The notes below the pieces were generated by a model, which saw only the letters and a list, made by a program, of their open reading frames with translations, searched no databases and was not told where the DNA came from. The translations under genes were made by a program, and so were the position numbers. This document shows, one piece after another, positions 44,972-61,476 of a stretch of DNA of 64,000 bases. This DNA comes from Acidimicrobiales bacterium (GTDB lineage Bacteria; Actinomycetota; Acidimicrobiia; Acidimicrobiales; GCA-2861595), in contig DATAIT010000055.1 in assembly GCA_036262515.1 (NCBI GenBank), forward strand, positions 1,532 through 65,531. Direction: 5' to 3'. Position 1 is the first letter of the stretch; each line of letters starts with the position of its first letter.

Positions 44972-45095
44972 CTCTCCTCGTCAGCGCCGGCACACCACTG
45001 TGCGCCTCGGGGGCCGTAGCGTACCGGCCTCCACAGCAGTACACCACGCCCTCCACGCCGAACCCGACGACGCCGGGGTGTCGTAGCGTGGGCGG

Positions 45096-46058: not shown

Positions 46059-46079
46059 CGTCGCCCGCCCAGGGGGCTG

Positions 46080-48224
46080 TCAGGGATTGATCGTGCCGAC
46101 GCCTACGCCGTCTTGCAACAGCGCGCCGTCGACACCCGAGAGGCGCACCTCCATCGTCTCCACCGACTCGCCCACGGAGTCTGCGTTCGCCAGGACGTTG
46201 ATCGTCCTCGACGTCGTCCCGGCCGCGAAGGTGAGGGTACCGGAGGCGGCGGCGTAATCCCCTGGGGCGACGGCCGTGCGGTCCGCCGCTGCCCAGGCGA
46301 AGGAGACGGCCCTGCCGCTCACCGTCGACATGGTCACCGTGAAGGTCATCCTCTTCGTCCCGGTGGCCGGCTCGGTCACTGCGACGTCGGAGATGGAGAG
46401 GAGCGGGAGGGGCTCGTCATCAACGATCTCGGCACGCCCCGTCTCGTCCATCAGGGTGGCGTTCGCGGCGTTGGTCAGCACGACCTGGAAGTGTTCGTTG
46501 TCCTCGGGCAGACCGTCCTCGATGGTCGGCACGACGATGGTCCCGGACGTCGCTCCGGCGCTGATCGTCAGCCTCCCGGTGGTCTTCGAGTAGTCCACCC
46601 CGGCGGCGGCGCCGGCGTCCACCGTGGCGTAGTCGACAGTCACCGGCGCGGACGCCGGAGACGAGAGCGAGACGACGAATCTCTCCGCGACGCCCTCCTC
46701 GGCCGAAGCGTCGCCCACGCTGAGCTTGGGCGTCGTCTTCGGATCGCTGATCGTCATGCGGGCGACACCGTCGGCGATCGTGAGGTGCTGGGGGTTCGAG
46801 AGGACGACGGAAAGGTCCTCGGTCCCCTCGGTGAAGTCGCTGTCGGGGTTCACCTTCACCACGACGTTCTTCGAACGGACACCGGGACGGAAGGAGATGG
46901 TCCCCGAGGTGGCCGTGTAATCGCCCGGAGGAGTTGCCGTTCCGGGGACCGTCGTGAAATCCACGCTGACAGTGGTCTCGGTTGCCTTGTCGAGCACGAG
47001 CTTGCACGTGAGGTTCGACGTCCCGTCCAGCAGCTCGAAGGCGGACCCGTCTATGGCCTTGACGGACGGAGGAGCATCGTTGTCGTCGATCGTCCCCGTT
47101 GCGGTACCTCCGACGATGGCGGCGTTCTCGGCCGACGTGAGCCCGAAGATGAGGGTCTCCGGTGCCTCGTAGACGTTGTCGTCGACGGTCGGGATCAGCA
47201 CCGTGGCACTGGTCTGTCCCGCAGGGATGGTGACGCTGCCGGTTGTCGCCGGGTAGTCGATGTCGGCACCGGCCGTCCTGCCGGTCGTCGTGTAGTTCAC
47301 CGTGACCGGAAACAGGATCGACTCGCCGAGGCTGATGGTGAACCGCAGGCTTGCGCCCTCCGTGGCCTGGGATCCCGCCACCCGGAGATCGGCGTTCCTG
47401 CAGATTTGCTGCTTGCGAAGGCAGGTGTCGACCAGGGACAGGAGACGCGTCGGCTGCCACACGTTGAAGAAGTCGGCGTGGCCGGAGTAGATGCCTCCCG
47501 AGGCCAGGTCGTACCCGGTGCCGCCCTTGAGATCGTCGAAGTGCACGATCTGGAGCAGCGTGGGCAGCAGCGTGGGATGTGTGGCCGGGCACGTGCCCGT
47601 CTTCGGCATGTACGCCATGTGGCTCTTGTGGTCCGCGCTGTCGAGGTTCGTGCCGTCCCAGCACTCAGGGAAGATGATGCGGAGGCGGAGGTGCTGGCCG
47701 TCCCCGCAGGTCGGGATCTCCTGGGCCGGGTCGGTCCTCTCAGCGTCGTCGGAGTCCTGCGCGCAGGACCACGATGCGATGTTGACCGATTGCGGGGACG
47801 TGGCCTTCGAGTCGCCGGCGATCATTCGGAGCCCCTGAGGGTAGGGCTGCACGATCGTGGGGTCGGTGCCGGCTGCGGTGTAGTAGGCGGCGATCCGCTG
47901 CGGCCGGTGCACCACACCGTCGACGGTCAGCGAGGGAGCCCAGTACGCGGACAGATCCTCTTCGAAGTCGCAGGTGGTGCCGGCCGCCTGGAGCGACGAG
48001 AGGGTCGAAAACGCATCGGTCGAGACGTTGCCGAAGAAGTCGTGGCTGTGACTGGTGCCGGGGCGCTGGGGGGCGACGATCGGGTCATCGGTGAGCGAGC
48101 GGCCGTACGTGCAGACCGTCTTGAAGCTCGGAACGGAGTCGATCGTCGCGTGCGCCGGCGACAAGGGGGCCAGCGGAAGAAGACCGGCAAGCAGGGAGGT
48201 TACGGTGATGACGAGTCGTTTCAA
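46080..48224 (-). CDS. Secreted DUF1996-domain protein with four Calx-beta repeats
   Basis: The signal peptide is 'MKRLVITVTSLLAGLLPLAPLSPAHA' and the DUF1996 signature is 'DDPIVAPQRPGTSHSHDFFGN'. Four ~100-aa repeats follow, each with '...Y.T..GTA.AG.DY....G.L.F..G......I.V...DD...E..E'. Confidence 0.8.
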   Translation of the reverse strand: MKRLVITVTSLLAGLLPLAPLSPAHATIDSVPSFKTVCTYGRSLTDDPIVAPQRPGTSHSHDFFGNVSTDAFSTLSSLQAAGTTCDFEEDLSAYWAPSLTVDGVVHRPQRIAAYYTAAGTDPTIVQPYPQGLRMIAGDSKATSPQSVNIASWSCAQDSDDAERTDPAQEIPTCGDGQHLRLRIIFPECWDGTNLDSADHKSHMAYMPKTGTCPATHPTLLPTLLQIVHFDDLKGGTGYDLASGGIYSGHADFFNVWQPTRLLSLVDTCLRKQQICRNADLRVAGSQATEGASLRFTISLGESILFPVTVNYTTTGRTAGADIDYPATTGSVTIPAGQTSATVLIPTVDDNVYEAPETLIFGLTSAENAAIVGGTATGTIDDNDAPPSVKAIDGSAFELLDGTSNLTCKLVLDKATETTVSVDFTTVPGTATPPGDYTATSGTISFRPGVRSKNVVVKVNPDSDFTEGTEDLSVVLSNPQHLTIADGVARMTISDPKTTPKLSVGDASAEEGVAERFVVSLSSPASAPVTVDYATVDAGAAAGVDYSKTTGRLTISAGATSGTIVVPTIEDGLPEDNEHFQVVLTNAANATLMDETGRAEIVDDEPLPLLSISDVAVTEPATGTKRMTFTVTMSTVSGRAVSFAWAAADRTAVAPGDYAAASGTLTFAAGTTSRTINVLANADSVGESVETMEVRLSGVDGALLQDGVGVGTINP

Positions 48225-48367
48225 GGCGGTTTCTCCATGCGTCGGACAGCGGCTCCGCCTAACGTCGGCCTCCGCGGATGTCCTCTTGAGGAGCGACCGG
48301 CGGGGCCCGCGCGCTAGCCGCGTCGAGATCGCTACGCTTGTCCGAGGACGGCAGCAGGGGGAGAGAC

Positions 48368-49270
48368 ATGGGTTCGGCCAACTTCGATCTGGGTGTCGCC
48401 GGCTCCCGGAGGGTCGACCGCGTGACCGGCGTCGTGGAACAGGCGGCGTTCGTCCCTCAGGACGACGGCACGCAGCTGTTCGTCATGGTGCATGAGCCGC
48501 CCGCCGAGCCTCGCGGCGGGGTTCTCATGTTCTCGTCGATCCTGGCCGACTTCATGTCGAACTACCAACGCGAGGTCCATCTCGCGCGCAGCCTCGCGGC
48601 GGCCGGCTTGGTGGTGATGAGGTTCCACTATCGCGGCACCGGGAACAGCGACGGCGACGCGGCGGACGTCACGCTCGGGTCGCTGCAGGACGATGGTCGT
48701 TGGTCGGTCGACTTCATGGGCAGCCGGCTCGGCAACCTGCCCCTCGGACTTCTCGGGACCCGCTGGGGTTCGCTGGCGGCGGCCGCCGCCGCCCGTGACC
48801 TCCCCACCGGGCCGGTGGTGCTCTGCGAACCGGTCGTCGATGCGTCGCGGTACTTCGTGGAGGCGTGGCGCAGCCGGGCCATGAGTGCCGTCGCCCTCGG
48901 CAGGACGGCCGGCACGGGCGAGCGTCTGGCCGACGTCATCGTTCGCCAGGGCTACGCGGACGTGGTGGGGAACGTCATCCACCGCGCGCTCTTCGACAGC
49001 GCAGCGGGCGGCGGCACGCTCGACGAGTACGACCTGGCCCGGCGCCCGGTCCTCGTCGTGCAGTTCGGTGGGAACGAGTTGCGGCCGGCGAACCGGACGC
49101 TTCGTGACCATCTCGACGGCAACGGCGCGGCGGTCGAGACGTCGACGGTCGACCTCCAGGAGAGCTGGTGGTTCCGCTCCGGCCCGCGAATCGTCCTCCA
49201 CCCCGAGCTCAACCGCCTGATCGCGGGCTGGTTCGTCTCGCAGGTGACGACCACCGAGGTCGGCCGATGA
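48368..49270 (+). CDS. Alpha/beta-hydrolase-fold protein with Arg at the nucleophile-elbow position
   Basis: ORF 48338-49270; the ATG at 48368 is preceded by GGGGGAGAG. The elbow-like motif 'LLGTRWGSLAAAAAA' reads G-x-R-x-G instead of G-x-S-x-G. Confidence 0.55.
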   Translation: MGSANFDLGVAGSRRVDRVTGVVEQAAFVPQDDGTQLFVMVHEPPAEPRGGVLMFSSILADFMSNYQREVHLARSLAAAGLVVMRFHYRGTGNSDGDAADVTLGSLQDDGRWSVDFMGSRLGNLPLGLLGTRWGSLAAAAAARDLPTGPVVLCEPVVDASRYFVEAWRSRAMSAVALGRTAGTGERLADVIVRQGYADVVGNVIHRALFDSAAGGGTLDEYDLARRPVLVVQFGGNELRPANRTLRDHLDGNGAAVETSTVDLQESWWFRSGPRIVLHPELNRLIAGWFVSQVTTTEVGR

Positions 49271-50175
49271 GTGTGACCTCGCGTCAGGAGTCGCCGGTCA
49301 TCTTCGAGGCGGCGGGAGAAGACCTGTTCGGAATCTTCACCCGACCCTTGGTCTCCAATGGCACGGCGGTCCTCGCATTGTGGGGCGCCGGCGGCTTTCC
49401 CACGTTCGGGAAGAACCAGGTGCGGATCCGACTCGCCCGCCAGCTCGCCGAAAACGGGTTCCACGTGCTCCGCGCTGATTACCGCGGCGTCGGGGAGAGC
49501 GGAGGGGAGTCCCGGGACGTCGACCTGTCGAAGCCCTGGATCGACGACGCCCTCGGCGCCGTCCGCTGGCTGGAGTCGCAGGGCTTCGAGCGGATCGCCA
49601 TCGTCGGGAACTGCTTCGGGTCGCGGACCGGACTGGCCGCCGCGTCCAGCATCCCCGGACTGGTGGGGCTCGCGTTGGTGGCTGCTCCGGTCAGCGAGGC
49701 CGATCACCGCGAGGCGATCCTCGGGCACTCCTTGTCGTGGTACCTGAAGCGGGCTCGCTCGATGCGAACCTTGCGGCTCCTGGTCTCGGGTGGCCTCGCC
49801 AAGCGGGTCCGCAGCGTGCTGAAGGCGAAGGTGCGCCGATCCGTACGGCCATCGAAGGCAGCGGACGCACCCGCGTCCGGCACCGCCAGTGAGCAGTACT
49901 TGCAGCCGCTCGAGGGCGTGCTGGCGCGGCGGATTCCGGTCCTGCTCCTCTACGGGCGGGGCGACGACTTCTATCCCGAGTTCGAGCGGGCCATGGACGG
50001 TCCGCTCGGTCGCATGCTCGACGGCGCAGGCGACCTCGTGACGCTCCGGGTGGTCGACGACCGGATCGGGGGGATGGCTAGCATCGAGGCGCAGAACACC
50101 TTCCTCGAGACCGTGACCGCCTGGCTCGATCGCGTGGCGGGGTCGTCAGACCATGACGTGGCACGTGACGGGTGA
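49267..50175 (+). CDS. Alpha/beta-hydrolase-fold protein with a Cys nucleophile elbow
   Basis: Starts at the ATG at 49267 (an ATGA overlap with the upstream gene): MSVTSRQESPVIFEAAGEDLFGIF... The elbow 'IAIVGNCFGSRTG' reads G-x-C-x-G. Confidence 0.6.
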   Translation: MSVTSRQESPVIFEAAGEDLFGIFTRPLVSNGTAVLALWGAGGFPTFGKNQVRIRLARQLAENGFHVLRADYRGVGESGGESRDVDLSKPWIDDALGAVRWLESQGFERIAIVGNCFGSRTGLAAASSIPGLVGLALVAAPVSEADHREAILGHSLSWYLKRARSMRTLRLLVSGGLAKRVRSVLKAKVRRSVRPSKAADAPASGTASEQYLQPLEGVLARRIPVLLLYGRGDDFYPEFERAMDGPLGRMLDGAGDLVTLRVVDDRIGGMASIEAQNTFLETVTAWLDRVAGSSDHDVARDG

Positions 50176-50258
50176 GCATGGGGCGCAGGGCACACTGATC
50201 CGATGCAGGAACGCCGAGGTATGTCGAGCACGCCGGACGCATTGACCCTGGAGCCCCG

Positions 50259-52163
50259 TTGATCCGGTTCGCGAGGCGGACCTTCATCGTCCTCGACCGG
50301 GCGGCCAGGGTCCGGTTCATCCTGTTCGCCCTCGGCTCCGTGGTGATCGCCGCCATCGAGGGTGTGGGCGTGGCGCTGGTGGTCCCCCTGACGCAGATGC
50401 AGGTCGGCAAGCACGGGGGGAAACTTCCCACCGCAGCCCGCTTCGTCAGCCGGCTCTTCGATCTGAAGACCGAGGGCCAGGCCACCCTGGCGCTGGCGAT
50501 CCTCGTCGTGATCTCGTTCTCGGTGAAGGCCATCGGCGCCATCGAGCTGCTGTGGTGGGGCATCGGCAACTCCCTCGATCAAGAGGCCCGCATCGCCCGC
50601 CGGTTGTTCACGCGCTACCTCACCGCGCCGCGGACCTACCACCTGGCCCACAACTCGGCCGAGATCCAGCGGACGTTGAACGAGGCGCTTCTCATCGTCT
50701 TCCGCCGGTCGCTGCCTTTCGTCCTGGCGGCGGCGGCCGATGCCTTCACGCTCGTGGCGGTGGCCGCCGTGATCGTCGTCAGCGACCCGGTGATCGCTTC
50801 GGTCGCCATCGTGTACTTCGGGCTCGTCGCCGTCGTGTACCAACTGTGGATCGGCGGCCGTCAGCGAGCGGCCGCCATCGCCGCCCACGCCGAGATCGCG
50901 CTTCGCTACCAGCAGGTCCAGGAGGCGATGCGGGCCACCAAGGAGCTGGCCATCCTCCACCGGGAGGAGCACTTCATCTCCCGCTTCTACAAGACGAAGA
51001 TCGAGCTGGCGAGCAAGCAGCGGCTCCTCATCCTCTACCAGCTCCTCCCGCGCCAGTTCCTCGATCTCGCGTTCGTGCTGGGCGCCGCCCTCATGGCCGC
51101 GTTCGCGTTCGCGACCCGAACGAACGAGCAGGCGTTGGCCAGCGTGGGCCTCTTCCTCACGGCCAGCTTCCGGCTCGTGGCGCCGCTGAACCGCGTCATG
51201 GGGGCGACCACCGTCACCCGGACGGCCCAGCCGGCGATCGACCAGGTCGTGAACGACCTTGCCGAGCTCGACGCCCTGCACGGCCTGCGGGCGCACGCCG
51301 ACGTGGATCCGCTCGGACCCGTGCCGCTCGAGCTGACGGACGTGCACTTCCGCTACGGCGAGGATCTGCCCGACGTGCTCCAGCGCATCTCGATGACGAT
51401 CGCCCCTGGGGAGGACGTCGCCATCGTCGGGACCACGGGTGCGGGCAAGTCCACACTGCTCGACATCATGCTCGGCCTCCTCGACCCGCAGACGGGGGAG
51501 ATCAAGGTCGGTGGACGGCCATTGCACGAGTGTCGAACCGCATGGCAGCTCACCATCGGCTACGTCCCGCAGGACATCGTCCTCATCGACGACACGATCC
51601 GGGCGAACGTGGCCTTCGGCATCGACCGCGCCGACATCGACGACGACAAGGTGTGGGAGGCCTTGCGAATCGCCCAGATCGACACGTTCGTCGCCTCTCT
51701 CTCCGGGGGTATCGACAACGTGGTCGGCGAGCAGGGCGTCCGGCTGTCGGGCGGGCAGCGCCAGCGGCTCGGCCTGGCGCGGGCCATGTACGACGGCCCG
51801 GCGGTGCTCGTGCTCGACGAGGCGACGTCGTCGCTGGACTCCAGCACCGAGGCTCGGATCATCGAGACGATCGCATCGCTGCGAGGCCGCCTCACCATTA
51901 TCACGGTGTCACATCGCCTCAGCACGCTGAAGCACTGCGACCGCATCTACTACCTCCGCGACGGCTCGGTCGTCGCCGTGGGCACGTTGGACGAGTTGCG
52001 GGCCTGCGACCGGGAGTTCGCCGAGCTCGTGACGTTCGCCGAGCTCGGCACCAGTCGGCCGTCCCGCGACGTGGCTGCCGGCGTCAACGGCGAAGGGGAC
52101 CCGGCCGATGTCTCGTCGGAGCGGCCCGGGTGGAAGCGCGGCATCCCGCGCCGGCGACCCTGA
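50259..52163 (+). CDS. Fused permease/ATPase ABC exporter (MsbA/type I exporter-like)
   Basis: 634 aa with six N-terminal TM helices. Walker A is 'GTTGAGKSTLLD', the signature is 'LSGGQRQRLGLARA' and Walker B is 'VLVLDEATS'. The start is a TTG. Confidence 0.9.
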   Translation: MIRFARRTFIVLDRAARVRFILFALGSVVIAAIEGVGVALVVPLTQMQVGKHGGKLPTAARFVSRLFDLKTEGQATLALAILVVISFSVKAIGAIELLWWGIGNSLDQEARIARRLFTRYLTAPRTYHLAHNSAEIQRTLNEALLIVFRRSLPFVLAAAADAFTLVAVAAVIVVSDPVIASVAIVYFGLVAVVYQLWIGGRQRAAAIAAHAEIALRYQQVQEAMRATKELAILHREEHFISRFYKTKIELASKQRLLILYQLLPRQFLDLAFVLGAALMAAFAFATRTNEQALASVGLFLTASFRLVAPLNRVMGATTVTRTAQPAIDQVVNDLAELDALHGLRAHADVDPLGPVPLELTDVHFRYGEDLPDVLQRISMTIAPGEDVAIVGTTGAGKSTLLDIMLGLLDPQTGEIKVGGRPLHECRTAWQLTIGYVPQDIVLIDDTIRANVAFGIDRADIDDDKVWEALRIAQIDTFVASLSGGIDNVVGEQGVRLSGGQRQRLGLARAMYDGPAVLVLDEATSSLDSSTEARIIETIASLRGRLTIITVSHRLSTLKHCDRIYYLRDGSVVAVGTLDELRACDREFAELVTFAELGTSRPSRDVAAGVNGEGDPADVSSERPGWKRGIPRRRP

Positions 52164-52385
52164 CCGGCTCGAACGTCGCAGAAAAGACGCCGGGACGGTG
52201 CCCGGGTGCGAACCGGCGCCGACTGCCGGAGGAGCAGCCTCAGCCGGGCCGCTACCGGGGCCGCGAGCCGGTGCGTGCAGCGGGCGGGACGAGCTCAGCC
52301 GGACGCGGAAACTCGCCGGTCGACGACGCCGACCGGCTCACCGTGACGGCGCGGGCCGTCAGGGAAGAGTTCCGCCTGAGACATC

Positions 52386-52413
52386 GATGAGGGCCCCAGC
52401 CGGGGCTCTCATC
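52386..52413 (-). terminator. GC-rich hairpin 10 nt downstream of the precursor-peptide stop
   Basis: gatgagggcccc-agcc-ggggctctcatc. This is 11 of 12 stem pairs with a tetraloop. Such a hairpin could act as an attenuator or stabiliser after a RiPP precursor gene. Confidence 0.5.
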
Positions 52414-52422
52414 AAGACCGAT

Positions 52423-52593
52423 TTAGTGTTTGTGTCCGCCGCAGCTGCCCGGGCCAGACACGCAGGAGAAGTTCGACAGGAACGCCGACGAGTCGTGCAC
52501 GGTGCCCGTCTTGCCTGGAGGTGCCGGCATCCTCGTCAGTTCAGAGACCAGCCCCAGCACTCGCATGTCCGGAGCCTCATACCTGGAGTCCAT
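52423..52593 (-). CDS. Candidate lasso-type RiPP precursor peptide (56 aa; below the ORF-track size cutoff)
   Basis: My own codon-by-codon translation gives MDSRYEAPDMRVLGLVSELTRMPAPPGKTGTVHDSSAFLSNFSCVSGPGSCGGHKH. The leader motif Y-x-x-P-x-(L/M)-x3-G-x5-T-x has exactly the lasso-leader spacing. GGGGGGA lies 3 nt upstream of the ATG, a promoter-like element is upstream, a hairpin is downstream, and the maturation genes are adjacent. Confidence 0.7.
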   Translation of the reverse strand: MDSRYEAPDMRVLGLVSELTRMPAPPGKTGTVHDSSAFLSNFSCVSGPGSCGGHKH

Positions 52594-52649
52594 CGTCCCC
52601 CCCTGTGGGTCCTTCAGCCGCTCCGGTCATGGTTGACCGGTTGCGGGTA

Positions 52650-52678
52650 ATGATAGAGCCCGGTTCCTCCCATGTCCA
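52650..52678 (-). promoter_or_regulatory. Sigma70/SigA-like promoter for the precursor gene
   Basis: On the minus strand, -35 TGGACA (52673-52678) is separated by a 17-nt spacer from -10 TATCAT (52650-52655). The -35 hexamer overlaps the ATG (52672-52674) of the divergent kinase-like gene. Confidence 0.45.
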
Positions 52679-53535
52679 CCTTTCCCTTGCCCTCCTCGTC
52701 CGATGCCGTGGGCGGGCAGTGCCCGGGGGCCTACGGCCTGGGCTTCTCGGGGCTCGCCGACCCTTCCTTCCTCGCCACCGCCGCCCCCCACTGGCCGGTC
52801 GTCGAAGTCGTGCGCCGGCGAGGGCGCGTGACCGACGCCCGCACGACGCTCGACGGACGTGGAGCGCAGTTCGAGCTCACGGAGGGGGGCAGCCTCGTCA
52901 TCGAGCGGGCGGCGCGGCGGTCGGTGTTCACCACACCCGACGAGCTGTCCGACCCGGAGCTGGTCCACCCCCACCTGGCGCCTGTCGGAGCCGCCTTCGC
53001 CTGGTGGGCCCAGCATGAGGCGTTCCATGCTGGCGCCGTCGCCGTCGACGGAGGGGCGTGGGCGATCCTCGGCGACCGGAGCGCAGGCAAGAGCTCGACG
53101 CTCGCGCAGCTCGCCCTGGCCGGGCACGACGTCATCTGCGACGACATGCTCGTCATCGATCACGGCCGCGCCCTGGCCGGCCCCCGCTGCGTCGACCTCC
53201 GTCTGGCGACGGCCGAGGGCTTGGGGATCGGCAAGCCGATGGTGATCCGCGGCGGGCGGGAGCGGTGGCGGGTGGCGCTCGGCCCGGTACCGGCGGAGCT
53301 TCCATTTCGCGGGTGGATCTTCCTCGCCTGGGGCGACGACCTCAGCGCCGACCGCCTCCCGGGCGGCGAGCGCCTGGCCCTGCTGGCGGGCCATCGAAGC
53401 GTCATGATCGAGCCGACCGACCCGTCCACGCTGCTCGAGCTGGCGTCCCTTCCGGCGTGGTGCCTGACGCGCCCGAAGCAGCTCTCGTCGCTACCGGTTG
53501 CCGTCGACCGGCTGCTCGACCTCACGATGTCGTGA
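52672..53535 (+). CDS. HPr-kinase-like P-loop protein (HprK-related kinase)
   Basis: 287 aa. 'WAILGDRSAGKSSTLAQLALAGHDVICDDMLVI' matches the HprK C-terminal-domain P-loop plus the following Asp pattern. It is convergent with, and overlaps by 45 nt, the Asn-synthetase-like gene. Confidence 0.65.
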   Translation: MSTFPLPSSSDAVGGQCPGAYGLGFSGLADPSFLATAAPHWPVVEVVRRRGRVTDARTTLDGRGAQFELTEGGSLVIERAARRSVFTTPDELSDPELVHPHLAPVGAAFAWWAQHEAFHAGAVAVDGGAWAILGDRSAGKSSTLAQLALAGHDVICDDMLVIDHGRALAGPRCVDLRLATAEGLGIGKPMVIRGGRERWRVALGPVPAELPFRGWIFLAWGDDLSADRLPGGERLALLAGHRSVMIEPTDPSTLLELASLPAWCLTRPKQLSSLPVAVDRLLDLTMS

Positions 53536-54693
53536 GGTCGGGGCCCCCGCGGCCGTCTCGGCGAGCCACGCCGACTGGATGAGGAGCGAGCTGCGTGCGT
53601 CGGGTTGCTCGTCGAGCCACTCGCGCCGCAGGGCGGCGTGGTCGACCAGGCCGGGATCCACGCCCCCACCGTGCCAGGACCGGGCGAACGACCGGCTGTG
53701 CTCGGTCCAGAATGCGGCGTTGAACGGCGCCTTGGTGCGGCGCCGCAGGATCGCCTCGGGCAGGGCATCGCCGAACAGCCGCTCCATCCACGCAGTGCGG
53801 TCGCCGATGCCGAAGCGCCCGCCGTCGGAGGCCATGGCGGCGAGGAAGCGGTCGTCGGCGAGCGGGTGCACGGCCAGGGCGCCTGCGTCGCGAGCGAGCA
53901 GGTCGAAGCTGTGGATGGTGAGCCGGAGTCCTCGAAGGCGCGCCCACCATCGCACCCGCCGGTCCCACCGCAGCGGCTCGGCGGATCCGGAGGCAGCCCA
54001 GGCCCGGTTGACGGCGCGCGCCGCAGGAGCCCGCAGCCACGGGAGCGGCGGTCCCTTCCCGTCCATGAGAAGGCCCACTGCCCGGATCGGCCGAGGCGAC
54101 AGGGCGAGCCCGAGGCGGACCACGTCACGGGGGATGGGACGAGCCCGCCCGGCCAAGACGGCGGCCGCCCTCGCCCAGCGCCAGGACGCGAGCAGCCCGT
54201 CCCCGTCGATCCCCGTCAGGACCGAGCCTCCCTTGCACGCGTCGAGCACCGGCACGTGGAAGTGGGAGTTGGCCGGCCAGAGAACCCCGTGTCGTCCGAG
54301 GACCTTCTGCGCGATCGGTCCGACCAGGTCGAGCTCGTCGTCGAAGTCGACCCGGGACCAGTCGTCCAGGCCGAGGTGGCGGACGACGGTCTCCTGCCAG
54401 TCCGTCTCGTCGGTCTCGGGGGCTCCCGGGAACCGGTGGGTCACGGGGATCGGGAGAGGAAGCCCTTCCTTCCTCGCCACGGAGGTGGCCACGGCCAGGA
54501 CGGCCGACGAGTCGCGCCCACCCGAGAAGCTGACGACGCACGGCGGCCGCCGGAGCGCCGAAAGGACAGCCGACTCGAAGCAGGACAGCGGCGTCGCTCC
54601 CGCGATCGCGCCGGGAACAGCGGGACCGGGGACCAGTCCAATGGGGGATCCCGAGACGAGATCGAGCGGGCTCAGGGCGTACGGGTCATCCAT
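53491..54693 (-). CDS. Asparagine-synthetase-like PP-loop ATP pyrophosphatase (lasso-cyclase homologue lacking the N-terminal domain)
   Basis: 400 aa with the PP-loop 'VVSFSGGRDSSAVL' at residues ~53-66. There is no Ntn/glutaminase-like domain, and its start overlaps the B2 stop by 8 nt. Confidence 0.75.
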   Translation of the reverse strand: MDDPYALSPLDLVSGSPIGLVPGPAVPGAIAGATPLSCFESAVLSALRRPPCVVSFSGGRDSSAVLAVATSVARKEGLPLPIPVTHRFPGAPETDETDWQETVVRHLGLDDWSRVDFDDELDLVGPIAQKVLGRHGVLWPANSHFHVPVLDACKGGSVLTGIDGDGLLASWRWARAAAVLAGRARPIPRDVVRLGLALSPRPIRAVGLLMDGKGPPLPWLRAPAARAVNRAWAASGSAEPLRWDRRVRWWARLRGLRLTIHSFDLLARDAGALAVHPLADDRFLAAMASDGGRFGIGDRTAWMERLFGDALPEAILRRRTKAPFNAAFWTEHSRSFARSWHGGGVDPGLVDHAALRREWLDEQPDARSSLLIQSAWLAETAAGAPTSRHREVEQPVDGNR

Positions 54694-55060
54694 GGCTGTA
54701 GTCGGATGGCGCTATCGACATCAGCCCGTCGAACGACTCCTCGTGGCACGAGGCGTGACCCTCGAGCCATGCGTGTGCGCTGAAGTCGGCGCTGGAGCCC
54801 CTCACGCCCACGACGACGTTGTGCAACCGGCCGTGCGCGCTGTGCCAGGCCTGCAACAGCAGGCTGCGCTCCAGGCACGTATGGCGGCGGCGCCGCAGTA
54901 CGGCGCCGACACCCCGCAGGGCGTTCTCCGGCAGGGGCGGCGGAGGCGGGACCACGATCCGGTCCACCCGCTGCGTCCGCAGCTGCTGGCGCAGGCGGGG
55001 CAGCGTGCGGTACGCCCACAGCGCAGCCCGGAGGTCGCTCCGGGTGATCCGGCGCGTCAC
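54686..55060 (-). CDS. Lasso-peptide B2-type transglutaminase-like cysteine protease
   Basis: These are the last 124 aa of ORF 54686-56713, from the GTG at 55058-55060: '...RRRRHTCLERSLLLQAWHSAHGRLHNVVVGVRGSSADFSAHAWLEG'. This shows the Cys...His signature of the PF13471 family. It forms a GTGA overlap with the PqqD stop. Confidence 0.8.
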   Translation of the reverse strand: MTRRITRSDLRAALWAYRTLPRLRQQLRTQRVDRIVVPPPPPLPENALRGVGAVLRRRRHTCLERSLLLQAWHSAHGRLHNVVVGVRGSSADFSAHAWLEGHASCHEESFDGLMSIAPSDYSHG

Positions 55061-55323
55061 GGCCCGTCGAGCAGGCCCCGCTTCCGGAGCTCCTCCAAGA
55101 AGTGGTCGACGTCGCGTGACGCCGTCTCGGGATCGATGCCGAACTCGTCCACCACACGGGCCACGAGCTCGTCCGTTCGAGCGCCTTCGGCCAACGCCTC
55201 CCACAACAGCGCGGCGGTGTGGTTCCCCGCCAGGTAGACCCGTCCCGGCACGTCGAGGACGATGACCTCGCCGTCGACCACGCGCCACGTCAGACCATCG
55301 GTTCGCAATTGCACCTGCTCCAT
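55057..55323 (-). CDS. PqqD-family RiPP recognition element (lasso B1)
   Basis: Starts at the ATG at 55321-55323: MEQVQLRTDGLTWRVVDGEVIVLDVPGRVYLAGNHTAALLWEALAEGARTDELVARVVDEFGIDPETASRDVDHFLEELRKRGLL. This is the classical PqqD pattern. Confidence 0.85.
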   Translation of the reverse strand: MEQVQLRTDGLTWRVVDGEVIVLDVPGRVYLAGNHTAALLWEALAEGARTDELVARVVDEFGIDPETASRDVDHFLEELRKRGLLDGP

Positions 55324-55395
55324 GTCCGCCCCCGCGTTTGAGCTGTGCCACAGGAGAGTACCGGACGCCCGGACCTCCGCCGACAAGGGGGAGGC

Positions 55396-56250
55396 TCAAT
55401 AGACGCCGAGGGTGCCGAGGCGTCGTTCGCGCTGCAACGCCAGGCGGAAAACCACGTGGCCCACGCACAGCGACAACACCGCCATGGGGACGAGCACGGC
55501 AATGTCGTCGACGATGCTCGCCCACCCCGCCCCGTTGAGCAGTGCATGGCGCATGGCCTGGAGGGCGATGGCGACGGGACTGTGCTGCACCACCCGAGCC
55601 GCGCCTGACGGGAGGAGCCCGATCGGAAAATAGGCGCCCGACCCGACGGTCAGCGCCGAGGCGGCGAGGCCCACGAAGCCGGACCCCCGGCGGATGGTGA
55701 GCACGGAGGCGGCGCACAAGCTCCCCAGGCCCCAGACGAAGGGGATGAGTGCGAGGAGCACGACCGTCGCCGGTAGCAGCCCGGCCAGCGAGAAGTCGAC
55801 GCCCAGGGTGACGGAGACCAGCAGCAGGAAGATCGCCGTCCGGATCGGCACGTAGAGCAGGTCGTAGATGACGAGCCCCAGTTGCAGGGTGGCGGCAGAC
55901 GTGGGCGTCACGAGGAGCGCCTCGAGCGTGCCGGTCAACTGCTCGCTGCGCATCTGGCTCGTCACCTGCACGAGCGCGACCTGGATGAAGCCCGCCACTG
56001 CGATCCCGATCGTCACGAAGCCGAGGTAGCTCGCCCGGGTCGCCCCGACGCCCTGGATGCGGGCGGGATCGACGAGACGGCTCACGAAGTAGAAGGTGAA
56101 GATCTGGAGAACGAGGCCCAAGGCGTCCTGCAGGTACGCCAGGCGGTAGCTCCAGGCGATGAGCAGGTCCCGGCGGACGAAGGCTCCCAGCTTCCGGGGC
56201 TCGGGAACGATGCCGCCGAACTGGTCGTGCGCCGACGCGGCCTCGGACAT
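55396..56250 (-). CDS. ABC-2-type transporter permease
   Basis: Starts at the ATG at 56248-56250 (MSEAASAHDQFGGIVPEPRKLGAFVRRDLLIAWSYRLAYL...). It has six hydrophobic segments and forms an ATGA overlap with the ATPase gene. Confidence 0.8.
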   Translation of the reverse strand: MSEAASAHDQFGGIVPEPRKLGAFVRRDLLIAWSYRLAYLQDALGLVLQIFTFYFVSRLVDPARIQGVGATRASYLGFVTIGIAVAGFIQVALVQVTSQMRSEQLTGTLEALLVTPTSAATLQLGLVIYDLLYVPIRTAIFLLLVSVTLGVDFSLAGLLPATVVLLALIPFVWGLGSLCAASVLTIRRGSGFVGLAASALTVGSGAYFPIGLLPSGAARVVQHSPVAIALQAMRHALLNGAGWASIVDDIAVLVPMAVLSLCVGHVVFRLALQRERRLGTLGVY

Positions 56251-57296
56251 CACGGCGGTCCCTCCGAGACGAGCCGGAGGAAGGCCTGCTCGATGCCCGA
56301 GCCCTCCTCCTCGCAACCGAGCACCTGGTACCCGTTTCCGGTGAGAGCGGAGATGGGATCGCCCAAGACCGCGTCCCCGCTGAGGGTGAGCGCGTAGCGG
56401 TCGATGCCGGAGCGGTCGCCCCCGACGGGGACCATCGTGGCCATCCCGGTGACAACGTCGGCGGGAGGACGCGGCTTCTGCGCCGTCGGGCCTGCCCGGA
56501 GCGTGACCATGTATCTCCTCGTCCCGGCCGTCGACGCCAGGCCCTCGACCGTGCCGCTGTAGCGGAGCTCCCCGCCCGCGAGCACCAGGACCCGGTCGGC
56601 GAAGTTGCGGAGCTCCTCCAGGCGTTGGGTGACCCACATCGCCGCCGCCCCGTGCGCGACGGCTTCCCGCACCAGCCCCTGGACCTGCCCCCTCGCGTTT
56701 GGATCCAGGTCATGCGTGGCCTCGTCGCAGAGGAGCAGCTTCGGCTCGACGAGGAAGGCCCGGGCCAGGACCAGCCGCTTCTGCATCCCGTGTGAGTACA
56801 GACCGACGCGGACGCGGGCTGCCTCCGAGAGGCCGACCTGGGCGAGAACCTCCTCGGCCCGCACGACCGCCTCCCGGTAGCGCTGCCCGTTGAGGCGGGC
56901 GAAGAAGACGAGGTTCTCCAGGCCCGACATCCGCAGGTAGAAGGTGCGATCGACGCCGGGCGCCCACCCCGTGAGCTGTCGTGCCGCCAGCTGGCCCGGC
57001 TGGTGCCCGAACACCCGCACTCGTCCGTAGGAGGGCTCCACCAGCCCGGTCAGGATGCGAAGGAGGGTGCTCTTGCCGGCGCCGTTGGCGCCGACGAGGC
57101 CGACGATCTCCCCCGGGGGCACGTCCAATGAGATGCCTCGCAGGACGGTTTTGGCACCGAAGCGCTGCACGACGTCGACCGCCTCTATGGCCGGCACCTC
57201 GCGAGACGGCGCCGGGATGGGCGCCGGCGTTCCGGGCATCACCGCTGCGGCATCGACTTCTGCAGCCACCGACCCAGCACCTCTCGCCTGGTCCAC
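56250..57296 (-). CDS. ABC transporter ATP-binding protein
   Basis: Walker A is 'GANGAGKSTLLR', the signature-like motif is 'YSHGMQKRLVLARA' and Walker B is 'LLLCDEATHDLD'. The start is uncertain (ATG at 57296 or 57240). Confidence 0.9.
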   Translation of the reverse strand: MDQARGAGSVAAEVDAAAVMPGTPAPIPAPSREVPAIEAVDVVQRFGAKTVLRGISLDVPPGEIVGLVGANGAGKSTLLRILTGLVEPSYGRVRVFGHQPGQLAARQLTGWAPGVDRTFYLRMSGLENLVFFARLNGQRYREAVVRAEEVLAQVGLSEAARVRVGLYSHGMQKRLVLARAFLVEPKLLLCDEATHDLDPNARGQVQGLVREAVAHGAAAMWVTQRLEELRNFADRVLVLAGGELRYSGTVEGLASTAGTRRYMVTLRAGPTAQKPRPPADVVTGMATMVPVGGDRSGIDRYALTLSGDAVLGDPISALTGNGYQVLGCEEEGSGIEQAFLRLVSEGPP

Positions 57297-57520
57297 CCGC
57301 TCACGGGCACCCGCCTCGTACTCCGTGCTCGGCGCGCCCGTCGCCCACAGCGTGGTTCACCGCACCCGGGCGCGCAAACGAGCGCGCACCCGCGCGCAGC
57401 GACGACCGGCCGATCGGCGGCACCTCCATCGGATTGCACACGCGTGGACAATTGGGCGGAAACGTGCGCACCATAGGGCCGGAAGGGAAGCGGCGGTCGC
57501 TTCCGGGACAGGGGGTAGAG

Positions 57521-58810
57521 ATGGCGCACGCCAAACATCTGTCGAGGTCGGGGCGCGGACGGGTCTCCACGGCTGCGACAACTGCGGCGTTGCTGGGCAC
57601 GATGCTCTTCATAGCGCCCGGTGCGGCCACGGCCGCTGGCGGAGGCTACGCCTACAGCGGCCGTGCCTACGGCACGTCGGTCAATGTGGGCAACCTCGTC
57701 ACATCCGGCCCGTCGTCGGTCGTCGGTGTCGGATGCACCGACGAGGCGGGGATTCACAAGACGAACACGCTGGCCACGATCGACGTGTCGCCGATCGTCA
57801 CCTCCGGGACGATCAACACGTCCGTCGACACGAGTGCCACAGCCACGAGCCAGCAGTCACAGTCGACCTCCGAGGTCCAGAACGTCTCGTTGCTGGACGG
57901 GCTCATCACGGCCGATGCCGTTCGAGCAGTCAGCACCACGTCGCACGACGGATCCGGGTTCCACAGCACCGGCGCCGGGTCCACCTTGGTGAACCTGAAG
58001 ATCGGCCTGACGACCATCGGGGCCACCCCGGCACCCAACACCACCGTGCCTCTCGTCGGGCTCGGCTCAGTCGTCCTGAACGAGCAGACGTCGAAGGTCA
58101 CGAACAAGGGTGCGTCCTACAGCGTCAACATGATCCACGTCTTCATCACGACCCAGAACCTGCTCGGCATCCCCGTGGGCACAGACATCGTCGTCGCCCA
58201 CGCCAAGAGCGACCTGCACGGCCCGACGCTCGCCATCCTCGACGGGCGGGCCTACGGCACGTCGGCCAATGTCGGCGAACTCGTCGAGTCCGGTCCGACT
58301 GCGCTGGTCTCCATGCCGTGCCTGGGCACCAAGGGAATCCTTCACGGCAACGACGTCCTCGGGGTCAACCTGCCCGGCATCCTGACGTCGGGGACTGTGG
58401 CCACAACGGCCGAGGGGTCGATCCGCAAGACGAGGGCGGACGGCGAGACGACAGCCACCGTCGAGGGCCTCGACCTGCTCGACGGCCTCGTGACGGCAAC
58501 GGTCATCAAGGCCGATGCGCATGCATCCATGAGCGGGGGCACGCTCACCTTCAGCGACGAGGGATCCACCTTCGCCGACCTCCAGGTGGCGGGCCATCCC
58601 GAGATCACGGCGGATGCCGCCCGGAACACCAGGATCGACCTGCTCGGACTGGGCACCCTGTGGCTGCATCGGGTGATCCAGGGTTCGAACCGGATCGAGG
58701 TGCGGATGGTCGAGCTGATCATCACCGAGCCGGGGAACGTCCTCGGGCTGGCCGTCGGCACGGACGTGCGGGTGGCCGTGGCCGAGGCGTCGGTCCACCC
58801 GTCGACCTAG
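57521..58810 (+). CDS. Secreted protein built from two tandem ~190-aa repeats (possibly the 'choice-of-anchor P'-like family)
   Basis: Starts at the ATG at 57521, preceded by GGGGGTAGAG, with a signal peptide ('TTAALLGTMLFIAPGAATA'). Repeat 1 is 'GRAYGTSVNVGNLVTSGPSSVVGVGC...LLDGLITADAVRA...' and repeat 2 is 'GRAYGTSANVGELVESGPTALVSMPC...LLDGLVTATVIKA...'. Confidence 0.6.
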   Translation: MAHAKHLSRSGRGRVSTAATTAALLGTMLFIAPGAATAAGGGYAYSGRAYGTSVNVGNLVTSGPSSVVGVGCTDEAGIHKTNTLATIDVSPIVTSGTINTSVDTSATATSQQSQSTSEVQNVSLLDGLITADAVRAVSTTSHDGSGFHSTGAGSTLVNLKIGLTTIGATPAPNTTVPLVGLGSVVLNEQTSKVTNKGASYSVNMIHVFITTQNLLGIPVGTDIVVAHAKSDLHGPTLAILDGRAYGTSANVGELVESGPTALVSMPCLGTKGILHGNDVLGVNLPGILTSGTVATTAEGSIRKTRADGETTATVEGLDLLDGLVTATVIKADAHASMSGGTLTFSDEGSTFADLQVAGHPEITADAARNTRIDLLGLGTLWLHRVIQGSNRIEVRMVELIITEPGNVLGLAVGTDVRVAVAEASVHPST

Positions 58811-58825
58811 GGATCATGCCTGGGC

Positions 58826-58845
58826 GAGCCGCACGCGTGCGGCTC
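58826..58845 (+). terminator. Perfect palindromic hairpin after the secreted repeat-protein gene and upstream of cysD
   Basis: gagccgcac-gc-gtgcggctc, located 16 nt after the TAG at 58808-58810. There is no T-tract, so it could be a terminator or an operator. Confidence 0.35.
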
Positions 58846-58907
58846 GTCCAGGCGCTCCCGGCCCTTCCACGGGCCGGCCGGGGACCGACGCTCCTAGAGT
58901 CTCCGGT

Positions 58908-59840
58908 GTGACGGACAGCCACGCGATGACGGCACATCCGTTCGAGTTGAGCCACCTCGAGGAGCTCGAGGCAGAAGCCGTCTTCGTGATGCGCGAGGTG
59001 GCGGCCGAGCTGAAGCGACCGGTCCTGTTGTTCAGCGGGGGAAAGGACTCGGTCGTCCTCCTGCGCCTGGCCGAGAAGGCCTTCCGCCCCGCCGGGTTCC
59101 CGTTCCCGATCATGCACATCGACACGGGTCACAACTTCCCGGAGGTGCTCGAGTTCCGGGACCGACGGGTCGCCGAGCTGGGCGAACGCCTCATCGTGGC
59201 CAGCGTCCAGGAGTCCATCGACCGCGGACGCGTGATCGACGAGACCGGTCCGCGGGCGTCCAGGAACCGGCTCCAGACGACCACGCTCCTCGACGCCATC
59301 GAGGAGCACGGCTTCGACGCCTGCTTCGGCGGGGCACGCCGCGACGAGGAGAAGGCCCGCGCCAAGGAACGCTTCTTCTCGTTCCGGGACGAGTTCGGCC
59401 AGTGGGACCCTCGGAACCAGCGACCGGAGCTCTGGCACGTCTACAACGGCCGGGTCCGCGAGGGTGAGCACATCCGTGCCTTCCCGATCTCCAACTGGAC
59501 CGAGCTCGACGTCTGGCAGTACATCGCCCGCGAGGGCCTCGAGCTGCCGTCGATGTATTTCGCCCACAAGCGGGAGGTCGTCGAGCGTGACGGGATGCTG
59601 CTGGCCACCGGTCCGCACCTGCCGGCGGTCGACGACGAAGCGCCGTTCGTCGCCACGGTGCGCTACCGGACGGTCGGTGACATGTCGTGCACCGGCGCCG
59701 TCGTCTCCTCGGCGTCGACGCTGGAGGAGGTCATCGCCGAGGTCAGCGCCACTCGGGTGACCGAGCGAGGAGCGACGCGCGCCGACGACAAGTTCTCCGA
59801 GGCGGCCATGGAGGACCGCAAGAAGGAGGGGTACTTCTAG
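58908..59840 (+). CDS. cysD: Sulfate adenylyltransferase subunit 2
   Basis: GTG start. The PAPS-reductase-like PP-loop is 'VLLFSGGKDSVVLLRLA', with 'GARRDEEKARAKERFFSFRD', 'ISNWTELDVWQYI' and the C-terminal 'RKKEGYF'. Confidence 0.95.
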   Translation: MTDSHAMTAHPFELSHLEELEAEAVFVMREVAAELKRPVLLFSGGKDSVVLLRLAEKAFRPAGFPFPIMHIDTGHNFPEVLEFRDRRVAELGERLIVASVQESIDRGRVIDETGPRASRNRLQTTTLLDAIEEHGFDACFGGARRDEEKARAKERFFSFRDEFGQWDPRNQRPELWHVYNGRVREGEHIRAFPISNWTELDVWQYIAREGLELPSMYFAHKREVVERDGMLLATGPHLPAVDDEAPFVATVRYRTVGDMSCTGAVVSSASTLEEVIAEVSATRVTERGATRADDKFSEAAMEDRKKEGYF

Positions 59841-61091
59841 ATGGACCTCCTGCGCTTTGCCACCGCCGGCTCGGTGGACGACGGGAAGAGCACGCTCATC
59901 GGCAGGCTGCTCTACGACTCGAAGCAGATCTTCGAGGACCAGCTCGAGGCGGTCGAGCGGGCCAGCTCGCAGCGCGGGCTGGACTACGTGAACCTGGCCC
60001 TGCTCACCGACGGGCTGCGGGCCGAGCGCGAGCAGGGCATCACCATCGACGTGGCCTACCGCTACTTCGCCACGCCGCGGCGGAAGTTCATCATCGCCGA
60101 CACCCCCGGGCACGTGCAGTACACGCGCAACATGGTGACCGGGGCGTCCACGGCCGACCTCGCCCTCGTGCTGGTCGACGCGCGCCGGGGCCTCCTCGAG
60201 CAGTCCAGGCGCCATGCGTTCATCGCCACGCTGCTCCGGATACCGCACCTCGTCGTCTGTGTGAACAAGATGGACCTGGTCGAATGGGACGAGGACGTGT
60301 TCAACCGGATCAGGGACGACTTCCGCGCCTTCGCGACCCGGCTGGACATCGCCGATCTGACGTTCATCCCGATCTCTGCGCTGCAGGGCGACAACGTGGT
60401 CGATCGCTCCTCCAACATGCCCTGGTACACCGGGCTCCCGCTGCTGGCCCACCTCGAGAACGTCCACATCGCCTCGGACCGCAACCTCGTCGACAGCCGG
60501 TTCGCCGTGCAGTACGTCATCCGGCCCACGCCCGAGCGCCGCCGGGACTACTGCGCCTTCGCAGGCCAGGTGATGGGCGGGTTCTTCCGGCCCGGTGACG
60601 ATGTCGTCGTCCTGCCGTCCGGCCTGACCTCCACCATCGCGTCGGTCGAGACCTTCGACGGTCCGTTGCAGGAGGTCTTTCCCCCGATGTCGGTCGCCAT
60701 CCGCCTGGACGACGACATCGACGTGTCCCGAGGCGACTTCATCGTCCGACCGGGGAACCAGCCCGAGGTGGGCCAGGACCTCGACGCCATGATCTGCTGG
60801 CTCACCGAGCAGCCGCTCGTCGAGCACGAGACATATCTGCTCAAGCACACGACACGCTGGAGCCAGACGGTCGTCCGCGACCTGCGCTACCGGCTCGACA
60901 TCAACACGCTCCACCGCGACGAGAAGGCCGAACGGTTGGACCTCAACGAGATCGGCCGGGTCACGCTGCGCACGACGACGCCGCTGATGTTCGACGACTA
61001 CCGGCGCAACCGGTCGACGGGCAGCTTCATCCTCGTCCACCGAGCGACGAACGCCACGGTGGGCGCCGGCATCATCCTCGCCTCCGCCTGA
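59841..61091 (+). CDS. cysN: Sulfate adenylyltransferase subunit 1 (GTPase), without a fused APS-kinase domain
   Basis: G1 is 'TAGSVDDGKSTLIGRLL', G3 is 'DTPGHVQY' and G4 is 'NKMDL'. It is 416 aa and ends '...TNATVGAGIILASA', with no CysC P-loop domain. Confidence 0.95.
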   Translation: MDLLRFATAGSVDDGKSTLIGRLLYDSKQIFEDQLEAVERASSQRGLDYVNLALLTDGLRAEREQGITIDVAYRYFATPRRKFIIADTPGHVQYTRNMVTGASTADLALVLVDARRGLLEQSRRHAFIATLLRIPHLVVCVNKMDLVEWDEDVFNRIRDDFRAFATRLDIADLTFIPISALQGDNVVDRSSNMPWYTGLPLLAHLENVHIASDRNLVDSRFAVQYVIRPTPERRRDYCAFAGQVMGGFFRPGDDVVVLPSGLTSTIASVETFDGPLQEVFPPMSVAIRLDDDIDVSRGDFIVRPGNQPEVGQDLDAMICWLTEQPLVEHETYLLKHTTRWSQTVVRDLRYRLDINTLHRDEKAERLDLNEIGRVTLRTTTPLMFDDYRRNRSTGSFILVHRATNATVGAGIILASA

Positions 61092-61255
61092 CAGCGGTGC
61101 TCGGGCGATGGCGCGCAGCCATTGAGGGCCCCATTCACTGGTCTTGTGTGTCGTCGTCCCGATCGTCGCGCCAGTCTGGGATCAGGACACGAGGGGTAAG
61201 AAGGGGAAGCGCTCGTGACCCCGCTCATGCCGCCAGACCAGGAACGACACGTGCG

Positions 61256-61390
61256 ATGACCGCGGTGCTCCTGCACGCCCGGGCCCACCTGCGGGCCCGG
61301 TGGTCGAGGTGGCCGGGGCTGGCGCTCCTGATCGCCCTTGGAGCCGGGGCCCGGCGCACCGACAGCGCGTACGCACGCTTCGACTACCCG
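61256..61390 (+). pseudogene. Possible remnant of the N-terminus of an FtsX-like ABC permease
   Basis: MTAVLLHARAHLRARWSRWPGLALLIALGAGARRTDSAYARFD resembles the conserved N-terminus ('...GARRTDSAYxRF') of actinobacterial FtsX-family permeases, but with a shortened TM1. Similarity is lost afterwards, and the opposite strand then encodes the OppF-like gene. Confidence 0.3.
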
Positions 61391-61476
61391 ACGGTGTCAG
61401 CTGCTCAGCCGTGCCGCCGCGTCGGCGGTAGGCCCCCCCCAGGACAGCCGCGGGCTCGGGGCCCGATCGCGAGGGC

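Follow-up and report, generated by a model that had tools for sequence, protein, structure and literature searches.

The DNA examined here is a 64,000-nucleotide (nt) stretch (hereafter the window) of contig DATAIT010000055.1 from an Acidimicrobiales bacterium, a high-GC sequence (~70%) of soil metagenome origin. Between positions 52423 and 57296 it carries what we regard, with a probability of about 90%, as a genuine lasso-type gene cluster for a peptide that is made on the ribosome and modified after translation (RiPP), with a precursor peptide of 56 residues. The combination of B1, B2, an AsnB-like enzyme, an exporter and a short precursor had been proposed as a lasso-type gene set in a first-pass annotation of the window, and protein families, synteny and the conserved precursor all support that proposal. 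That the cluster is also functional and processes its precursor along the lines proposed further below is probable, if somewhat less firmly so.

The operon lies on the minus strand and opens with a gene for a DrrA-like ATP-binding cassette (ABC) ATPase (56250-57296; PF00005, 99.3 bits; TIGR01188 drrA, 161.8 bits, under the cut-off), followed by an ABC-2 type permease (55396-56250; PF01061, 38.8 bits), B1, a PqqD-type RiPP recognition element of 88 residues (55057-55323), B2, a transglutaminase-like cysteine protease of 124 residues with a GTG start (54686-55060), and C, a short Asn-synthetase-like PP-loop enzyme of 400 residues (53491-54693). K, encoding a 287-residue P-loop kinase with the PEPCK/HPr-kinase fold, is found on the plus strand (52672-53535), where it converges on C with a 45-nt overlap and diverges from the precursor gene A (52423-52593, minus strand). 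All of the open reading frames (ORFs) were recovered at the coordinates first assigned to them, the 56-residue ORF with exactly the sequence quoted, and the same holds for the short overlaps within the operon (ATPase/permease 1 nt, B1/B2 4 nt, B2/C 8 nt); permease and B1 are separated by a 72-nt gap. GC content at third codon positions (GC3) is 0.87-0.93 in the six large genes, which backs coding, and the 56-residue ORF has a weaker codon-position profile (0.56/0.54/0.79) that is still compatible with coding.

The precursor is predicted to consist of a leader (residues 1-21, nt 52531-52593) and a core (residues 22-56, nt 52426-52530; MPAPPGKTGTVHDSSAFLSNFSCVSGPGSCGGHKH), with Lys28 (nt 52510-52512) and Asp34 (nt 52492-52494) as the predicted ring partners. 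Relative to the predicted cleavage site the leader has Y5 at -17, P8 at -14, M10 at -12 and T20 at -2, as well as G14, and the spacing of Y5, P8, M10 and T20 exactly equals that of the published lasso-leader register, Y(-17)xxP(-14)xL(-12)...T(-2) (PMC10368454). Searched alone against NCBIfam and Pfam, the 56-residue peptide gave no match at E ≤ 0.01; it carries no family label because it scores 12.5 bits on the NF033521 model ("lasso RiPP family leader peptide-containing protein"), which has a cut-off of 19. As such single-peptide profile searches were empty, the precursor family becomes visible only through comparison with relatives.

Related loci were collected by scanning species-representative genomes with C, which gave 314 encoding stretches, and the best 80 loci, all from Actinomycetota, were compared. 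They derive from Thermoleophilia, Gaiellales, Solirubrobacterales, Acidimicrobiia and Egibacteraceae, and include the cultured Blastococcus aurantiacus DSM 44268. Mapping the window proteins onto these loci by tblastn revealed a recurrent order of ABC ATPase, ABC-2 permease, a gene of ~1.1 kb, B1, B2, C and convergent K; K was present in 73 loci, B1 in 65, B2 in 58 and a syntenic permease in 40, and the ATPase is likewise syntenic in relatives. Precursor genes were sought in the 80 loci with phmmer, the 56-residue peptide serving as query for ORFs from all six frames, and with a pattern constraining the leader only. The phmmer search returned dozens of weak matches, almost all just past K and divergent from it, and the leader pattern picked out 85 small ORFs, nearly all beside K, from the window and 66 of the 80 loci. 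The 56-residue ORF is thus conserved next to homologous B1, B2, C and K genes, as had been anticipated, although the tblastn search suggested for establishing this recovered one locus only at E 1e-3 and the family emerged through phmmer and the leader pattern. In an alignment of 42 of the peptides, Y5, P8, G14, T20 and D34 (window numbering) are invariant, and NF033521 matches 41 of them (best E 2.6e-8).

Among 1.8 billion representative proteins, searched exhaustively, the window-type peptide has 16 relatives; a word-index protein search with the 56-residue peptide returned the strain variant only. The contigs of P0243, P0248 and P0256 each have a kinase-sized gene without a Pfam match divergent from the peptide gene, one of them together with NTP_transf_5, PqqD and Asn_synthase genes and another with an exporter (the P0242 contig was too fragmentary and was left out of this neighbourhood reading). 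The strain variant, from forest soil (L081), is 99.78% identical to the window over 11.6 kb; within the A ORF it has a single synonymous substitution and lacks 6 nt in frame, through which the last two residues are lost. A trace resembling a transcript was found in a soil metatranscriptome, where a 166-nt contig with one mismatch covers positions 52453-52618 (the A ORF plus 25 nt upstream). It is the only long piece in that dataset with ≥98% identity to positions 44001-64000, and the chance of a random fragment falling on the A ORF is roughly estimated at ~2%.

The putative expression signals of A were largely found as first described. The sigma-70-like element TGGACA-17-TATCAT (52678 to 52650, minus strand), a consensus match only, agrees with the consensus at 10 of 12 positions, a score seen in 0 of 50 shuffles, and overlaps the first codons of the divergent K gene; a G-rich Shine-Dalgarno sequence, GGGGGGA, precedes the ATG of A by 3-4 nt. 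The GC-rich hairpin reported downstream of A is present too (~52379-52419, minus strand; dG -22.8 kcal/mol, z -2.49, 5 of 200 shuffles folding equally well), but it starts ~4-7 nt past the stop codon and not 10. It has no T-run and is a candidate terminator or stabiliser.

Some relatives have more than one precursor, or precursors of a different make. Two tandem precursor genes occur in many of them (L029 10551-10936, L062 7334-7671, L068 12041-12378, L071 12040-12377 and L023 11968-12354), with partly overlapping frames and two different core types ("...QDKMYGSSDGFTFMGTSITNASP" and "...IPCFWTKTIGPPDYFTFIPIANCSS"), both containing K-x5-D. L077 has a third leader-bearing small ORF (19592-19819) ~8 kb away from its cluster, with a His-rich core (HHVSWHHDHPHGHGHGGFHHHGSM) that has neither Lys-x5-Asp nor canonical ring residues. 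In L059 (7833-8009) and L073 (7901-8032), Lys comes first after LTQ and Asp is at position 8 (KDSGHAND, KGTGKAKD), which is the canonical register with Lys1.

The individual proteins were compared to curated families. B1 belongs to the PqqD family as assumed (PF05402, 60.7 bits; gathering threshold 23.4), scores 43.8 bits on the lasso-specific NF033530 (lasso_PqqD), under its cut-off of 70, and is predicted to bind the leader. The transglutaminase-like assignment of B2 also stands (Transglut_core3, PF13471, 40.3 bits; gathering threshold 26); the protein passes the NCBIfam lasso B2 model NF033537 (39.9 bits, cut-off 33), its catalytic residues C62 and H96 do not vary among 59 homologues, and it is predicted to be the leader peptidase. 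For K, the label "HPr-kinase-like" is only partly borne out. The score on Hpr_kinase_C is too low for membership (PF07475, 18.2 bits; gathering threshold 33.3), TIGR04352 gives 15 bits, and the 120 best homologues are all "hypothetical" and without a Pfam domain. The predicted fold does agree with the label: the AlphaFold model (pLDDT 93.4) was matched by Foldseek to ATP-dependent PEPCK (E 5e-8, TM ~0.5) and HPrK/P (E 1e-5 to 1e-4), two enzymes that have one P-loop kinase fold in common. Since 62 homologues all keep the P-loop G139-K140-S141, D157-D158, R172, D175 and R177, K is likely an active kinase. Characterized lasso kinases act on a C-terminal Ser (PMC8498205) or on Ser3 (BsfK, PMC10368454). 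The window peptide ends in ...GGHKH (...GGH in the strain variant) and has no C-terminal Ser, a residue in which many relatives do end.

C is a member of Asn_synthase as first assigned (PF00733, 39.7 bits over residues 49-364; gathering threshold 21) and consists of the synthetase domain only, the glutaminase-type N-terminal domain being absent. The earlier remark that several components of the cluster are non-canonical is correct. C52 and the PP-loop motif SFSGGRDSS are invariant. C has at least 1436 homologues; the 120 listed are mostly ~380-440 residues long, the best non-self match is 60% identical, and those with a name are called "asparagine synthase-related protein". The best PDB folds for the model of C (pLDDT 94.6) are synthetase domains at 13-16% identity, namely those of TsnB9, beta-lactam synthetase, human ASNS, CarA (carbapenam synthetase) and AsnB; no lasso-cyclase structure was among the matches of this fold search. 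We predict C to be an ATP-dependent macrolactam-forming cyclase.

The predicted core does not follow the canonical lasso pattern. Cleavage after R21 would leave Met1, with K, T and G at positions 7-9 and the first Asp at 13, and the product is not filed as a canonical lasso peptide because this core fails the G/A/S/C1 plus D/E7-9 rule. A different regularity was found when 84 cores, collected with the pattern that leaves the core unconstrained, were compared to shuffled cores (1000 trials): K-x5-D occurs in 65 of them (mean 6, maximum 16 after shuffling), and in 61 of the 64 that break the canonical rule. A further 16 cores, mostly from Acidimicrobiia-type loci, are textbook examples with G1...D8/9 right behind LTx and without K-x5-D. 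Between LTx and the Lys lie 1 to 16 residues, with Thr(-2) fixed throughout. A Cys in this linker, usually two residues ahead of the Lys, goes along with a Cys in the C-terminal region (both in 25 cores, neither in 32, one only in 4; Fisher p = 9e-13), a pairing to be expected of a linker that is kept in the product and would be joined to the tail by a disulfide. The window-type subfamily has the motif PPG-K-x-G-x-x-H-D-[GAS]-S-x-F-x-x-N-F-S-C-V...C, and 14 further representatives carry PPGKxGxxHD behind linkers of unequal length. Closure as Lys(N-zeta)-x5-Asp(C-gamma) would by our count give a ring of 26 atoms, equal in this to a Gly1-Glu8 lasso ring. In a tree of the cyclases, canonical-core and Lys-core loci lie apart, and the window is placed beside L001, L021 and L043, whose cores are of its own type. 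From Met1, the lack of Asp/Glu at positions 7-9 and the presence of K-x5-D in rule-breaking cores, we infer the epsilon-amine of Lys28 as the nucleophile. A side-chain ring between Lys28 and Asp34 in the window product is accordingly put forward as a tentative assignment, at a little below even odds.

A number of observations weigh against this interpretation, some touching the cluster as a whole and others the ring. The window peptide itself stays below the cut-off of the leader model that its relatives pass. Evidence for a transcript comes from one unstranded contig of 166 nt with a depth of 3.3, for which DNA carry-over is possible. C reaches 17 bits on the lasso cyclase model NF033535 (668 positions, cut-off 525), with only its residues 37-111 aligned, to model positions 243-318. 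To our knowledge, the N-terminal domain missing from C is present in every characterised lasso cyclase; the usual form of this enzyme has two domains and roughly 500-650 residues. Being this remote from lasso cyclases, C could carry out other catalysis. The core statistics count related sequences, so that the p-values overstate independence. As regards the ring, Gly always precedes the Lys in the window's subfamily, which makes an alpha-amine Gly27-Asp34 ring of eight residues possible, and at positions 163 and 166, which separate the cyclase clades, the window enzyme resembles the canonical-core clade. Residues 145, 163 and 166 were considered as markers of Lys-type chemistry and rejected, as they follow phylogeny and the window is of the canonical type at two of them.

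The last two points lead to the rival explanation that survives best, an alpha-amine lasso peptide with a long spacer, in which the leader would be removed before Gly27, either by B2 itself, cutting at PP|G, or in a trimming step that follows the LTR cut, and Gly27 would be joined to Asp34. The conserved Lys would then be ring residue 2, serving target binding or kinase recognition. G-K-x5-D indeed reads as G1...D8 in the window, L001, L021, L043 and 14 more precursors, and the window cyclase, apart from its residues at 163 and 166, also adjoins the canonical-core clades in the tree. However, Thr20 is invariant at -2 and the Gly follows 3-10 residues further on at a variable distance, so the recognition element would not be located at the cut. 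In the larger K-type clades, moreover, the Lys is preceded by D, E, N, P, T, K or W, and a Gly start can therefore not be the rule for the whole family, and the covariation of linker and tail Cys argues that the linker is retained. On balance, we consider this explanation unlikely, though worth keeping in view.

A more improbable alternative is that C forms no ring and activates a carboxylate for another ATP-dependent reaction, such as amidation of a side chain or the C-terminus or attachment to another amine, leaving a product that is linear or differently cross-linked. The low NF033535 score is in line with this, and a profile search of PDB sequences with the C alignment gave no match. AsnB-like enzymes are also described as performing other chemistry in RiPP clusters, for instance in a preprint on nitrilobacillin. 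Against this, the Pfam match of C comprises the synthetase domain only, without a glutaminase domain as a source of ammonia. In 16 relatives this short enzyme goes together with textbook G1...D8/9 lasso cores behind T(-2), and the one invariant residue of the core is an Asp at a fixed spacing from an amine.

The reading we prefer, a lasso-type cluster with a Lys-Asp ring, would proceed as follows, with the cleavage site, ring partners, threading and phosphorylation all predicted from sequence comparison. B1 would bind the leader and present the precursor to B2, which would cut after Arg21, as judged from the leader register. C would then adenylate the side-chain carboxylate of Asp34, and attack by an amine, here the epsilon-amine of Lys28, would close the macrolactam, a 26-atom ring of seven residues. 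The product would have a free N-terminal arm, MPAPPG, and a tail of 22 residues, with a probable disulfide between its two conserved Cys, C44 and C51. K would probably phosphorylate the precursor on a Ser/Thr, as happens in paeninodin-type clusters, and the product would be exported by one or both of the ABC systems. Extended to the family, this would amount to a new lasso-like topology, with a Lys-Asp ring made by a glutaminase-less AsnB-type cyclase, a free arm often locked by a disulfide and decoration via kinase, nucleotidyltransferase and sugar-/sulfotransferases, in a RiPP tied to exopolysaccharide machinery; this wider proposal is speculative, and we hold it more loosely than the ring itself.

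The second of these ABC systems is a fused transmembrane domain-nucleotide-binding domain exporter of 634 residues, MsbA/HepA-like (50259-52163, plus strand; PF00664 and PF00005), which converges on the precursor gene. Because an exporter takes the same convergent position in Acidimicrobiia-type loci (L039, L045, L057, L072 and L082), it is probably part of the cluster, as a second exporter or an immunity pump. The ~1.1-kb gene of the relatives encodes an NTP_transf_5 nucleotidyltransferase, which is found near C in 61 of the 80 loci and, in the two loci examined, L004 and L045, between permease and B1. No nucleotidyltransferase gene was found in the window operon; one is encoded 30 kb away (21919-23340 stop-to-stop, plus strand; PF14907, 100.7 bits), directly behind a priming sugar transferase (Bac_transf and CoA_binding_3; both within 20094-23340), the two overlapping stop-to-stop. 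It is possibly a displaced "N" tailoring gene, its link to the peptide in the window being conjectural.

Two kinds of gene near the cluster in relatives are recorded here separately. A LuxR/NarL-type response regulator (Response_reg and GerE) lies ~1.2 kb past the precursor in many Thermoleophilia-type loci (e.g. L004 13380-14102, L006 13391-14203, L008 13350-14024, L017 13391-14098 and L020 13391-14188) and accounts for 10 of 121 flanking genes; none was seen beside the window cluster. Acyl-CoA dehydrogenase genes are found in the window at 37864-40926, adjacent to an AMP-binding enzyme, and have homologues in 10 of the 80 loci, with two such genes directly upstream of NTP_transf_5 in L045 (5848-8305). 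They may point to acylation chemistry.

The cluster was described as sitting in a polysaccharide and sulfation island, and genes of this kind were indeed confirmed from ~20 kb to 61 kb of the window. They encode the priming sugar transferase and NTP_transf_5, an epimerase, two GT4 glycosyltransferases, a Wzz/tyrosine-kinase protein, CysD and CysN, the last two (58908-61091) supplying 3'-phosphoadenosine-5'-phosphosulfate. Sulfotransferase-family genes are found at 24280-25464, 26407-27567, 36569-37483, 44078-44980 and 45087-46058, with a sixth sulfotransferase match (Sulfotransfer_3) on the ORF at 26407-27567. Sulfotransferases and CysD/CysN in one island point to a sulfated exopolysaccharide. 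The family is repeatedly found in polysaccharide loci: in 22 of the 80 loci, a Bac_transf homologue is encoded no more than 10 kb from C, and a census of 28 loci with 121 flanking genes has GT4, GDP-mannose dehydratase/epimerase, Bac_transf, WecG and GT2 among the commonest families, together with LuxR-type response regulators. In one window-type relative, a GT4 gene, a faint sulfotransferase match and MurJ and Wzy genes come next, and in L056, L066 and L069 the gene directly upstream of C encodes a sulfotransferase, which in L066 lies between B1 and C. The peptide may be glycosylated or sulfated, or may share no more than a location with the sulfated-polysaccharide genes.

This setting, the lower GC3 of the small ORF (0.79) and the fact that ABC-2 transporters and AsnB-like amidotransferases are found in glycan pathways too could be taken to mean that the enzymes serve polysaccharide biosynthesis (e.g. 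sugar amidation or export) next to a 56-residue ORF that arose by chance, but we give this practically no credence, since a family of small ORFs kept in position and leader in 66 of 80 loci fits the curated lasso-leader model NF033521, B1 and B2 are peptide-handling proteins and the strain variant retains the reading frame.

Other genes around the cluster were examined for membership. Two alpha/beta-hydrolases (48290-50175) and a secreted protein (57503-58810) were rejected, none of them having homologues in the 80 loci. Coding-like ORFs without a Pfam match are present at 11278-14199 and 35128-36657 (minus strand) and at 40841-42232 and 57503-58810 (plus strand), the latter with a signal-peptide-like start and rich in repeats. 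The gene at 46080-48482 (minus strand), with the sulfotransferases on one side and the alpha/beta-hydrolases on the other, encodes a large protein of secreted type that contains DUF1996 and four Calx-beta domains; it is conserved in the near-identical strain variant alone.

Valued both as ultra-stable scaffolds and as antibiotics, lasso peptides are defined by a ring between the alpha-amine and Asp/Glu that is made by a two-domain cyclase. The family of C is large (the homologues and genome matches given above) and nearly confined to uncultured Thermoleophilia, Gaiellales, Acidimicrobiia and their relatives, and standard lasso-core rules would mis-predict or overlook its precursors. Should the Lys-Asp ring prove true, the cyclase would be able to do without its N-terminal domain, and the same machinery could accept a side-chain amine to give branched, two-armed lassos, offering a simpler cyclase for engineering. 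The recurrence of polysaccharide loci also raises the question whether some RiPPs are glycan-decorated or act with surface polysaccharide, as opposed to being free antibiotics.

When compared to known systems, the cluster is closest to the kinase- and nucleotidyltransferase-bearing lasso clusters of paeninodin, pseudomycoidin and Bradymonas BsfA (Firmicutes, Proteobacteria), with which it shares split B1 and B2, an AsnB-type enzyme and an HPr-kinase-like kinase. The likeness extends to the ABC exporter, to an NTP_transf-type "N" gene, present in most relatives of the window and sometimes accompanied by a sulfotransferase, and to the leader with YxxPxL at -17 to -12 and Thr at -2 (PMC8498205, PMC10368454). 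In contrast to those clusters, the window has a C of 400 residues without the N-terminal domain, a core that fails the canonical rule and has no C-terminal Ser, and an operon without an N gene, and it belongs to an uncultured soil actinobacterium in which the cluster lies in a polysaccharide island. The actinobacterial lasso peptides of classes I-IV (lariatin, siamycin, BI-32169, LP2006) share the A/B1/B2/C/D logic, the Asp acceptor and the bulky, aromatic-rich tail behind it, and the conserved Cys pairs of the window family are reminiscent of the disulfides of classes I, III and IV. They differ in that the window nucleophile is proposed to be a Lys side chain, with the N-terminal arm retained and a variable distance between cleavage motif and ring.

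A Lys epsilon-amine also takes part in a macrocycle in class V lasso-type peptides (lariocidin B, gelatinamin A), where it is joined to the C-terminus in a second ring by a clostripain-like transpeptidase (PMC13178200). The first ring of these peptides is canonical, however, and no clostripain-like peptidase was seen among the window cluster ORFs in a Pfam scan. Side-chain macrolactams between Lys and Asp/Glu (omega-amides) are known from graspetides/microviridins, where they are made by ATP-grasp ligases, and the linkage predicted for the window, a Lys-Asp macrolactam in a ribosomal peptide, resembles them. No ATP-grasp domain was found in the eight cluster ORFs scanned, the only candidate being C, a PP-loop AsnB-type enzyme. 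In the literature covered, in which subscription journals are represented to a limited extent, neither a Lys-Asp lasso ring nor a short lasso cyclase nor a link between lasso peptides and exopolysaccharide was described. From the known kinase- and nucleotidyltransferase-bearing lasso clusters, the family is set apart by the domain-less cyclase, the core rule and the polysaccharide setting.

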